Shown here piece after piece: positions 38,021 through 40,521 of a DNA stretch of 50,738 nt. This DNA comes from a virus (Duplodnaviria > Heunggongvirae > Uroviricota > Caudoviricetes). Both the position numbers and the translations under genes were made by a program. Location of the stretch: IMG/VR virus record IMGVR_UViG_3300010279_000007. The stretch is one strand, 5' to 3'. The stretch's first letter is position 1. Each line of letters opens with the position of its first letter. The notes under the pieces were generated by a model, which saw only the letters and a program-made list of their open reading frames with translations, made no database searches and was not told the origin of the DNA.

Positions 38021-38037
38021 AAATTTATTAGAGCATT
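38021..38037 (-). promoter_or_regulatory. C1-operator-like site heading the immI operon
   Basis: AAATTTATTAGAGCATT, 1 mismatch. Confidence 0.6.
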
Positions 38038-38133
38038 GTTTGTTTAATAAATGCACAATTGGATCTAATAACCTCTTTTTTTTAAAGGCGAAAATATGTA
38101 CCCTAAATGAGTTATAAGGCAGGTGAGGTTATA

Positions 38134-38625
38134 ATGAGAAAACTATTACTACCGTTATTATTTATGGCTGGGACTGTTAATGCAGCATCAAGCGTAAAGG
38201 AGATTTGTACCGATTATACGAAATACCTTGGGCACGTTTACGGATTTGCTGTCAGTGAAGACGAATCCATGCGCAAGAAGTTACTGTCAGATATGAAGCG
38301 CCTTAAACTTTCTGAAGCGATGGTGCAGCAGGAACTGTATAAAGTCTCAACCAACGCAAATGCTAAATACCAATATTCTCGCCTATTAAACCCCGATGCA
38401 AATGAGATCAATCGAAGCACTTTCGATTATATGGTAAAGGCATGCGAAACAGCTCCTGATTTTGCTATCCCTAGCTGGGGTGTGCTGGTGGCGAGCAATG
38501 CCGTTAATAAAGAAGATGTTGGAAGAAATGGCATTGACTCAATCAGAAATGCCCCAGGAATGCGCCATCAAAACGTGCAGGGTACGCTTGAAGAACGAGC
38601 CAGGGGGCCGGGTGTAGCTCCATAA
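38134..38625 (+). CDS. secreted protein with C-terminal Sit-like peptide
   Basis: Signal peptide MRKLLLPLLFMAGTVNA; C-terminal GMRHQNVQGTLEERARG matches Sit internal repeat; AT-rich. Confidence 0.55.
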   Translation: MRKLLLPLLFMAGTVNAASSVKEICTDYTKYLGHVYGFAVSEDESMRKKLLSDMKRLKLSEAMVQQELYKVSTNANAKYQYSRLLNPDANEINRSTFDYMVKACETAPDFAIPSWGVLVASNAVNKEDVGRNGIDSIRNAPGMRHQNVQGTLEERARGPGVAP

Positions 38626-38713
38626 TTTAATGAATAATATTAAATTCTCTGGGCATAGTGGATCTAACAATATGGACTATGCCTATAATATCTAAAACAA
38701 AAAGGATAAAAAT

Positions 38714-39220
38714 ATGAAATTATATAAGTCATTGTATAGCTTTTTATTAATGTCCTCTTTTCTGCCATTATCAGCAATGGCAGGTTCTACCGTTTGGACG
38801 GTAGGAGGTGAGCAAGGGTGGAGAGAAATCTCTGCAACCAATGACGATGGTTATACAATTAACTTTTCTTGTGATGCTGGAGCAAGGGAAGGTTCCGAAG
38901 ATCATATAGCTGGAAGAAATTTGTATGTAAGTGGAGGGAAAGAGAATGCTGATTTTTCTACACGCGACACAATTTCTCGTAAAGCTGATGTAATTACCTT
39001 AATTGTTGGTTCGGATAGCTTTAATATTGGTACGCAAAACACTGCTCCAAATCGTAGGGAATGGTATTCTTTTTGGAAGTCAGCGTCAGCCACAAAAGAA
39101 AAAAACATGGATGTATATATCGGATCGCGTCGAATTACATCATTCTCTCTTGATGGAATTTCAAGTATTTACAAGGAAGCTAAAAATGATGGATGTTTAA
39201 AGCAAGATGACGGTGAATAA
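38714..39220 (+). CDS. secreted protein
   Basis: 168 aa with signal peptide MKLYKSLYSFLLMSSFLPLSAMA; AT-rich codon usage. Confidence 0.55.
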   Translation: MKLYKSLYSFLLMSSFLPLSAMAGSTVWTVGGEQGWREISATNDDGYTINFSCDAGAREGSEDHIAGRNLYVSGGKENADFSTRDTISRKADVITLIVGSDSFNIGTQNTAPNRREWYSFWKSASATKEKNMDVYIGSRRITSFSLDGISSIYKEAKNDGCLKQDDGE

Positions 39221-40391
39221 AGTGAAGGATATTAAAAAACTTGCACTTGGCTCAGTAAGCGATCTCTATAATAGAGATTCAAATATTACCTGGCGTGATA
39301 ATTTAAGTAAAATCAAAATGCCAGGATATACATCGGCAAGTGATTTATTAAAATCAGAATATGCTTCTAATAATTTGGTTAGACAGTTGGCAGAACTGCA
39401 AAAAAACGCAATCATTCCATCGTATAGAGAACATATGGCAAACTTGCAAGAACAGTTAAGAATAGGGCGGCTAGCTCAAGAACAAATAGCAAGATTGAAT
39501 TTGCAATCGTTACTTAGTGATTCTGTTAAAAAACAGCTTGCGAACATGACGAGCTTGAGAAGAATAAATAGCAAGCATCGTGAATTTCTTGAAATTCTAC
39601 AGAAACAGGCCAAGGTTTATCCCCCGCATGATGCAAATAAATACATTCAAATGCTAAGGAAGCAGGCAGAAATTGCTATGCCGTTACGAAACCAGTTCGA
39701 GATGCTTAATAAGCAAGCTGGTTTAAATAACATGCAAGCAATACTTAATGAATTGCGACAAAATGTAAGTCATAAGATAGATTTAAACAATGAAATAAAA
39801 GAATCATTAAAACAATATACCCTAGCGCAAAAGGCTTCATTACATCAAATAATGGAGCAAAGTCTTTCATCAATTGCACAGGCTTATGTCGAAGGTGCTA
39901 TTGAAACATCTCACAACGAAAGTGATGTTCAAGACAAAGGATTAAATAAATCCAGTTCGACGTTCATTGATTCATTTAAGTCGCTCCCTCACCCGCTTCA
40001 GTTTATTATTATGTGGCTTTTAACAGAAGTGGTGCTTGGCGCTATTGCTGATTATGCAAAAGAACAAATCTTATCGCAAATACACAAGACAGAATCATAT
40101 TCTGTATCCCTATATGAGGATGCACCAATATCAAAACAAAAATTAATTAAAGAAAACACAGAAATTAAGTGGGAAGATCTCAATGGTTTTAGGTTTATAA
40201 CTGGTGATAACGTAAGATTACATGTCAGTCCTTCTTTAAATAGTGAAGTGATTGAATGCATTGGCAAAAACACAATTGTTGCTATTTTAGATAAGAAAGA
40301 TCGTCAATGGCTTTACGTGCAGGTTAAATCAGGGGATGAGTTTATTACTGGTTGGATTACACGAACATACACAAAGCCTCTTAAGGCTTGA
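39207..40391 (+). CDS. membrane protein with coiled-coil N-domain and C-terminal SH3b-like domain
   Basis: 394 aa; TM LQFIIMWLLTEVVLGAIADYA; C-terminal FRFITGDNVRLHV...WLYVQVKSGDEFITGWI. Confidence 0.55.
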   Translation: MTVNKVKDIKKLALGSVSDLYNRDSNITWRDNLSKIKMPGYTSASDLLKSEYASNNLVRQLAELQKNAIIPSYREHMANLQEQLRIGRLAQEQIARLNLQSLLSDSVKKQLANMTSLRRINSKHREFLEILQKQAKVYPPHDANKYIQMLRKQAEIAMPLRNQFEMLNKQAGLNNMQAILNELRQNVSHKIDLNNEIKESLKQYTLAQKASLHQIMEQSLSSIAQAYVEGAIETSHNESDVQDKGLNKSSSTFIDSFKSLPHPLQFIIMWLLTEVVLGAIADYAKEQILSQIHKTESYSVSLYEDAPISKQKLIKENTEIKWEDLNGFRFITGDNVRLHVSPSLNSEVIECIGKNTIVAILDKKDRQWLYVQVKSGDEFITGWITRTYTKPLKA

Positions 40392-40521
40392 ATTTTATCT
40401 CCGCATCTTCGGATTGGGTGTTGATGACGATGTGCTACTTGAAGCACTTGAGTTGTTTTAACGTAGTATCTGAAATGTGTAGACTGACCGGTAACAAATG
40501 ACAACTCGTAGAATCGGTTAA

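Follow-up and report, generated by a model that had tools for sequence, protein, structure and literature searches.

To our knowledge, the mechanism of exclusion by the sim superimmunity locus of phage P1 has never been worked out. In P1, this locus consists of simA, simB and simC, whose products (52, 111, and 264 amino acids (aa)) all have export signals. Among other exclusion proteins of phages, Spackle (Sp) and Imm of T4 are periplasmic or membrane proteins that act on the tail lysozyme and on DNA entry, whereas HK97 gp15 and TP-J34 Ltp act on tape-measure or ejection proteins. The inner-membrane proteins SieA of P22 (PMC10883804) and SNIPE (PMC13190303) are described in their abstracts as acting on tape-measure or ejection proteins as well. 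Here, we describe the sim locus of a 50,738-nucleotide (nt) stretch of DNA (IMG/VR record IMGVR_UViG_3300010279_000007, hereafter the window), which is part of a P1-like IncY phage-plasmid. The first gene of the locus encodes a full-length SimA (SimA-long) that ends in a tail homologous to a segment of Sit, the tape-measure and injection protein of these phages. Competitive mimicry of Sit by this tail, acting as a decoy, is our most likely working model for exclusion, and we give it a probability of roughly 0.4.

By alignment with P1, the stretch between 38.1 and 40.4 kb is the window's allele of the simABC locus, and it lies between Op51/PsimA and LPsit/pmgC. The flanks of this island are 95-98% identical to P1. 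The gene order is repL, kilA, ant1/2, icd, and c4, then the island, then pmgC, tub, pmgB, and sit, and the P1 record has simA, simB, and simC in the slot of the island. Homology to P1 in blastn stops at position 38273 and restarts at 40493, and since these junctions exactly bracket the 3' part of simA, simB, and simC, we identify the island as a sim allele. The segment between them (38274..40492, + strand) lacks DNA homology to P1, which carries there the end of its simA stub, simB, and simC. We mapped the annotated features of P1 onto the window by alignment (window position = P1 locus position + 33549). The conserved left edge of the regulatory region is the C1 operator Op51 (Oc4; 38021..38037, - strand), whose sequence, AAATTTATTAGAGCATT, is the same in the window and in P1. 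Next to it is PsimA (38043..38069, + strand), a predicted sigma-70 promoter in surroundings that are ~98% identical to P1; it is absent from the list of a simple consensus promoter scan and is hence a weak match. The conserved right edge is LPsit (40496..40514, + strand), the late promoter upstream of pmgC, with one substitution relative to P1. A query with the 2.4-kb island was 100% identical to several ~96-kb non-mobilizable plasmids of Escherichia coli and Salmonella; one of these, pCFSAN004177G_03, is typed as IncY and its copy of the first open reading frame (ORF) is annotated as a 'simA domain protein'.

The original prediction, made from the letters of the window, had reported here three genes in an AT-rich island next to immI. 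We confirmed the three ORFs (38134-38625, 38714-39220, and 39207-40391), all on the + strand and divergent from the c4-icd-ant genes of immI. The island is indeed AT-rich, with 37.0% GC against 47.6% for the window, but the values given at the time (27-35% against 50%) were exaggerated. The lowest 300-bp intervals of the island have 31.7-36% GC, and the three genes have 44.5% (ORF1, barely under the level of the backbone), 37.9% (ORF2), and 35.0% (ORF3). Moreover, the island is no novel insertion. It is an allele of a known locus, which is listed among eight hypervariable regions of low GC in P1-like phage-plasmids (PMC9603915) and whose genes are dispensable for lytic growth (PMC10695390). 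The earlier interpretation was reasonable, but it went beyond the evidence and missed the known sim locus.

ORF1 (simA-long; 38134..38625, + strand) encodes 163 aa and matches the PHROG family phrog_3933 (E=1.9e-113). A Shine-Dalgarno-like sequence, AGGTGAGG, directly precedes its ATG, and an alternative ATG lies upstream at 38107. The protein begins with a signal peptide read from the sequence, MRKLLLPLLFMAGTVNA (38134..38184, + strand), which is followed by ASS. It has the classical n-h-c organisation with cleavage between VNA and ASS, all 21 homologues of our alignment share the NAAS site, and there is no lipobox Cys. These features suggest that SimA-long is exported by the Sec pathway and soluble in the periplasm. 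The signal peptide is followed by a helical domain (aa 18-120; 38185..38493, + strand) with an invariant Cys25 and Cys104, which probably form a disulfide that stabilises it. The Sit-like tail (aa 139-163, NAPGMRHQNVQGTLEERARGPGVAP; 38548..38622, + strand) closes the protein, and the BLASTP similarity to Sit begins somewhat before it, at aa 122 (nt 38497). In the AlphaFold2 model, residues 21-120 are helical with a predicted local distance difference test score (pLDDT) of 93-97, whereas this score is below 50 for aa 1-15 and 45-62 for the last 30-35 residues, motif included. The tail is thus probably flexible in the model, and a confident helical domain followed by a low-pLDDT tail is the usual layout for a displayed linear motif. 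The window protein has the hallmarks of the long family, namely the signal peptide, the ~100-aa helical domain with C25 and C104, and the motif N-x-[PR]-G-M-R-H-Q. Fold searches with SimA-long gave no informative match, and sequence searches against defence systems, NCBIfam, and solved structures were negative. A Pfam PTPlike_phytase match over the helical domain scored 25.4 bits, below the cut-off of 27, and was treated as spurious. We also compared SimA-long with YfjS, the neighbour of YfjT in E. coli K-12, and found no relationship.

The SimA of P1 corresponds to the beginning of this protein. It is 85-90% identical to the N-terminus of ORF1 over the 42-48 residues that it retains (~45), and the window and P1 share the regulatory region, with Op51, PsimA, and the Shine-Dalgarno-like sequence, as well as ~46 initial codons. 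Where the window has GAC GAA, P1 has TAT TAA, i.e. the simA stop codon comes from a change of GAA to TAA. In the alignment, the start codon of P1 simB (ATG) falls on the codon of Met46 inside the long simA, and homology stops a few bases further, at 38273; this junction region spans 38260-38285 in the window and 4700-4725 in our P1 locus (L001). Because of this stop codon and of the position of the simB start, we regard P1 SimA as a truncated stub, and the P1 allele seems to have arisen by a recombination that exchanged the 3' part of simA and turned the internal Met into the start of simB. The long form is widespread. PLSDB has 267 plasmids with a SimA match, and in 126 of them the match extends over 80% or more of SimA-long. 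The shorter matches, sampled at even intervals from the ranked list, are confined, as in P1, to the first 48 residues. Homologues of SimA-long, down to 52% identity, occur in Escherichia, Salmonella, and Klebsiella on contigs that, assembly permitting, are ~90 kb long, and also in Cronobacter phage JK004; they were found only on P1-like elements. In the literature that we searched, neither a full-length SimA nor a similarity of this protein to Sit is mentioned. What is new here is that P1 simA is the truncated remnant of a widespread full-length gene whose product displays a conserved piece of a tape-measure and injection protein. In summary, the window resembles P1 simABC in position (Op51/Pc4 to LPsit-pmgC), regulatory region, low GC, and the first ~45 residues of ORF1. 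It differs by the lack of SimB and SimC, by an ORF2 that is unrelated to either in profile comparisons, and by a SimA of 163 aa whose helical domain and Sit-like tail are both missing from P1 SimA.

Sit (42712..46086, + strand; 1124 aa, P1 annotation) is a tape measure with a muralytic domain (PMC9024508). It is essential, has tail-associated muralytic activity, and is unresolved in virion structures (PMC10695390, PMC9024508, PMC12810830), including the recent cryo-EM of P1 (PMC12810830). A domain match places its SLT domain at aa 742-847 (44935-45252, + strand). Further downstream lie repeat 1, GRGMRREVVQGTLEERARGKGTAT (45514..45585, + strand), which is homologous to the SimA tail, and repeat 2, GLFDKLRNSPGMRKNNV (45694..45744, + strand), which is a partial second copy of the motif. 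The homology between the end of ORF1 and these repeats had been proposed originally and it holds, with solid statistics: aa 122-162 of ORF1 match aa 921-957 of Sit with 21/41 identities (BLASTP E=9e-8), and a second match at Sit aa 997-1011 has 9/15 identities. Other pairs are still closer, with 23/39 identities between a class-B SimA and a Salmonella-type Sit (E=2e-11) and 28/44 between P0028 and another Sit (E=2e-15). A similarity of ~40 residues in such pairs argues for homology rather than for a chance pentapeptide. At the DNA level, the core of 24 codons is 65% identical (47/72; roughly 70% had been given before), with 18/24 identities at each of the first and second positions (75%) and 11/24 at the third (46%). 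The peptide was thus kept while third positions diverged, which indicates an old divergence under purifying selection and not a recent copy, in agreement with the earlier suggestion.

The similarity is also specific. A six-frame scan of the window with a regular expression found the motif once in ORF1, twice in Sit, and in one other place, VGAGLRHRV in a 94-aa ORF at window position 17552 (+ strand, frame 2); this last match is probably due to chance (E=0.51 against the repeat profile). We then searched 2.3 Gb of phage genomes (50,697 records) by tblastn with the 39-aa tail. Only SimA orthologues and the Sit of P1-like phages were found, the latter including P1, P7, SJ46, RCS47, phi456, JL22, and similar phages, apart from two matches in Synechococcus at E=2. 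Finally, we built a hidden Markov model (HMM) from twelve repeats of seven distant Sit-like proteins, excluding both P1 Sit and SimA, and used it on 593 sequences, i.e. 578 six-frame ORFs of the window and 15 SimA relatives. SimA-long ranked first (E=3.7e-9, 31.6 bits), and the window's own Sit had E=9e-4. The SimA tail has the consensus form RNAPGMRHQ, whereas the P1-type Sit has drifted to NGRGMRRE and NSPGMRKN. The original prediction had presented the tail as a mimic of the resident Sit, and this part did not hold for the resident copies in particular, since the tail matches the consensus of distant Sit-like proteins better and does not co-vary significantly with Sit within genomes (see below).

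The motif N-[AS]-[PR]-G-M-R-H-Q is nearly invariant in the alignment of 21 homologues. We compared regions in SimA relatives that are 52-67% identical overall. Among the divergent members that keep the extension, identity to the window SimA is 62-81% in the motif and 55-71% in the folded domain, and only 22-33% in the linker that precedes the motif. This pattern typifies a linear motif that is functional and lies in a flexible tail. It bears on the possibility that ORF2, ORF3, or both are the effectors of exclusion, e.g. with ORF3 as an inner-membrane-anchored and wall-bound SH3b protein at the entry site, the SimA tail being a relic that an old recombination with sit left behind and that is tolerated. 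Such a history would fit a mosaic recombination hotspot with breakpoints inside simA, and ORF2-like genes are present in nearly all non-P1 alleles. Yet, a relic is not expected to be conserved like the folded domain while the adjacent linker decays, nor to keep its peptide despite diverged third codon positions across lineages of Escherichia, Salmonella, and Klebsiella, and we consider this explanation improbable. Taken together, these comparisons indicate that the tail and Sit are truly and specifically homologous, that their divergence is old, and that the tail is constrained.

Exhaustive HMMER searches with the C-terminal 264 residues of Sit found distant relatives with 26-43% identity over the C-terminal ~130 residues. 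Their last ~300 residues contain '..LGGDKLR-x-A-[EP]-G-[ML]-R-H-Q..' once or twice, upstream of the conserved C-terminal end, and wherever an SLT domain is recognisable the copies come after it. As judged from these sequences, the GMRHQ motif belongs to Sit-type tape-measure proteins in general. Three of the distant proteins (P0093, P0094, and P0096) have GLRHQ repeats and the conserved C-terminal end without a Pfam SLT match, and carry a different, unrecognised domain at the position of SLT. No relatives of the distant proteins were found in IMG/VR, and the genome scan for them gave one Chimaeribacter contig of 4.9 kb. Their '..NAEG[LM]RHQ.Y' resembles the N-terminal catalytic 'EGxRxxxY' of GH24 lysozymes, for which P1 Lyz has IGNAEGCRRDPY, and we take this to be presumably a lead rather than evidence. 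No Phage_lysozyme match appeared when seven such proteins were scanned with Pfam (E<=1), and both SimA and the P1-type Sit have Pro or Arg in place of the Glu. Among E. coli P1-like elements, the length of Sit varies from ~1100 to 1263 aa. Repeat 2 has two allelic forms, FDKLRNSPGMRKNN... and YDKLINARGMRSNN..., in the Sit genes of loci L003-L071, and these forms showed no association with the type of sim cassette in the same loci.

The decoy model that we favour would work as follows. SimA-long would be exported, and its small helical domain would bear the flexible C-terminal tail in the periplasm. This tail holds a segment of 25-40 residues descended from the conserved '..RNAPGMRHQ-V-QGTL-ERA-G..' that follows the SLT domain of Sit. 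When Sit enters the periplasm upon tail contraction of an incoming P1-like phage, the SimA tail would already occupy the partner that the Sit segment must engage, which may be a component of the host periplasm or inner membrane or another part of the injection apparatus. Passage through the cell wall or DNA entry would then fail, resulting in superinfection exclusion after adsorption. A broader version of the model is more tentative. In it, a prophage would export a carrier that displays a conserved tape-measure segment and, by mimicry of a short linear motif and competition for the periplasmic partner of that segment, would keep out the genomes of all phages of the family that rely on it.

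The systems described at the beginning provide both the analogy for a role in exclusion and a different mechanism for it. HK97 gp15, TP-J34 Ltp, SieA, and SNIPE block infection after adsorption via proteins of DNA transit through the envelope, are encoded by prophages or islands, and are specific for related phages. They are membrane-anchored or lipoproteins, whereas SimA-long is predicted to be soluble and carries a homologous piece of its putative target; a sequence shared with their own target is not described for any of the four in these abstracts. Like Spackle of T4, SimA-long is small, helical, encoded by a phage, and apparently exported, and its plausible target is a periplasmic, tail-associated muralytic or injection protein. 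It could act in the same way, the helical domain binding and blocking the SLT domain of the incoming Sit or another ejected protein, and the tail, which would mimic a normal contact of the Sit segment inside the injection apparatus, serving for recognition or tethering. Exclusion, together with protection from lysis from without, would then result from inhibition of an enzyme and not from competition for a host partner. SimA-long has however no sequence or fold similarity to Spackle, no structural match to any lysozyme or transglycosylase inhibitor, and no family match; moreover, T4 is virulent and SimA-long comes from a prophage locus. The motif is present in the three distant tape-measure proteins that lack a recognisable Pfam SLT, and is therefore not tied to SLT. 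We know of no indication that Spackle copies a segment of its target. Overall, we find this Spackle-like action unlikely.

The C-terminal ends of SimA proteins differ after the motif. The window type stops following VQGTLEERARGPGVAP, the common E. coli type runs on with GTNSPMGNLSPEEL... and a helical extension, and the Salmonella and Klebsiella types either retain KVEGTLE[SE]RARG or have a Cys-containing module right after GMRHQ. Loss of conservation right after GMRHQ in part of the family, with varied C-terminal modules next, is what one would expect of a linker or a processing site. GMRHQ could then be a generic periplasmic signal used by both Sit and SimA, for the binding of peptidoglycan, a chaperone, or a protease, or as a cleavage site. 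The real function of SimA would reside in its helical domain, e.g. in lysogenic envelope conversion or as an accessory to ORF2 and ORF3, and need not concern superinfection at all. It is in line with this that P1's own record calls SimA 'accessory', and that an ORF2 relative of the YfjT family and ORF3-like SH3b proteins are found at the locus without SimA, e.g. in L079. On the other hand, the tail matches only SimA and Sit in the 2.3-Gb phage collection and the motif is confined to these two proteins within the window, while a minimal site for cleavage or binding would not require a similarity of 39-44 residues. We doubt that the tail is a shared tag for addressing or processing.

Several observations weigh against the decoy model. 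Some relatives of SimA-long retain just N-x-[PR]-G-M-R-[HQ]-Q followed by an unrelated Cys-containing module, so that the SimA family can do without the complete Sit-like stretch. Co-variation between the SimA tail and the Sit of the same element was not significant (permutation p=0.06-0.13, with 8 non-independent pairs). PsimA is a predicted promoter and abuts a C1 operator, which makes expression in lysogens uncertain. The Sim phenotype in the older P1 literature was seen with multicopy clones. PADLOC models gave no match for ORF1-3, nor for SimB and SimC of P1. In the P1 record it is simC that is labelled 'superimmunity', simA being only a 'putative superimmunity accessory function', and SimB and SimC have no match anywhere in the window. 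The role of the cassette in superinfection exclusion is accordingly one that we infer from position and analogy only. The exclusion module announced by the original prediction is supported by the position at the P1 sim locus, to which superimmunity and exclusion of P1 are assigned, by the identity of the N-terminus of ORF1 with P1 SimA, and by the homology of the tail to Sit; the absence of SimB and SimC and the accessory label of simA count against it, and a decoy is one of several mechanisms that would fit the data.

The other two genes of the island had been foreseen to encode a second signal-peptide protein and a transmembrane protein with an SH3b domain. ORF2 (38714..39220, + strand; 168 aa, phrog_3429), presumably exported to the periplasm, has a classical n-h-c signal sequence with cleavage between AMA and GST and no lipobox Cys, and two Cys are conserved in its alignment, C53 and one in a DGCLK motif. 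Precomputed Pfam annotations assign ORF2 and its relatives to PF27224 (YfjT), and hhalign aligned ORF2 with YfjT of E. coli K-12 over 128 columns (probability 97.3%, E=2.4e-11). YfjT is encoded by the cryptic prophage CP4-57 and resembles ORF2 in size, signal peptide, and prophage location; yet, identity is only ~25% and YfjT is itself uncharacterised, and membership in the family thus gives no function. ORF3 (39207..40391, + strand; 394 aa, phrog_7086) is a single-pass membrane protein with one hydrophobic segment (aa 262-285; 39990-40061, + strand) and a probable SH3b-like domain at the C-terminus (aa 334-388; 40206-40370, + strand). The match of this domain to PF08239 (SH3_3) has 26.0 bits for a gathering cut-off of 27 (E=1.1e-5), and nearly all ORF3 homologues have a precomputed PF08239 match. 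The N-terminal part is large, hydrophilic, and devoid of an export signal, so that ORF3 is likely oriented N-in/C-out with a periplasmic SH3b domain. The transmembrane segment and the SH3 domain are the best conserved part among its homologues, which mostly lie on contigs reaching ~90-100 kb in Escherichia, Citrobacter, and Salmonella; those of E. coli that we inspected are P1-like.

ORF2 and ORF3 overlap by 14 nt (39207-39220), which may result in translational coupling. A short palindromic hairpin, AAGCCTCTTAAGGCTT (40374-40389), overlaps the stop codon of ORF3 and has a weak terminator score on both strands. A Salmonella homologue of ORF3 that is 449 aa long and 37% identical (L078, 6001-7350) lies outside the sim locus; on its ~92-kb contig, it stands alone on the + strand amid genes of the - strand, and close by is a very large helicase/methylase-like gene. 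We rejected ORF2 and ORF3 as diverged versions of SimB or SimC, since hhalign gave probabilities below 1%.

A comparison of the locus across P1-like genomes had been named beforehand as a check of the original prediction. We surveyed 69 IMG/VR loci and further contigs and found it variable, with several alleles. The window type encodes SimA-long, a YfjT-like protein, and the SH3b protein. The most frequent non-P1 allele among the IMG/VR loci has a longer SimA and a YfjT-like protein that is 28% identical, without the SH3b gene. The P1 type has the SimA stub, SimB, and SimC, and one locus (L043) combines SimA-long with a SimC-like protein. In L079-L081 (5077-7035), SimA is replaced by a 116-aa polytopic membrane protein with several hydrophobic segments, followed by the genes for the YfjT-like and SH3b proteins; modules like ORF2 and ORF3 therefore occur without SimA, and we regard them as separable modules of the same hotspot. 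Recombination breakpoints within simA are located near codon 47, near codon 72, and at the 3' end of the gene. Two further insertions were observed. In L013 (IMG/VR UViG_3300015177_000010; 8663-9992), an insertion of 1.3 kb directly upstream of the MRKLLL start of simA-long encodes, by reading of its translation, a putative TnpB-like protein of 402 aa; it parts simA-long from Op51/PsimA, and the alternative upstream ATG is lost. In a Salmonella P1-like element (L076, 6498-7451), three small genes with Pfam matches of toxin-antitoxin type (PrlF_antitoxin, dnstrm_HI1420, and Gp49) are inserted beside ant of immI.

These results show that the P1 reference allele is degenerate, and that the full-length protein is encoded by roughly half of the PLSDB plasmids with a SimA match. 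The homology of the tail points to the repeat that follows the SLT domain of Sit as a specific target, which makes the old question of sim directly testable. If the decoy model is true, target mimicry would join the mechanisms of superinfection exclusion, the GMRHQ repeat would be a previously unrecognised functional element of Sit-type tape-measure proteins, and there would be a first molecular handle on the long-unexplained sim phenotype of P1. P1 is a standard tool for transduction. Phage-plasmids of its type also spread resistance genes (PMC9603915). In natural isolates, resident sim alleles could restrict transduction by P1.

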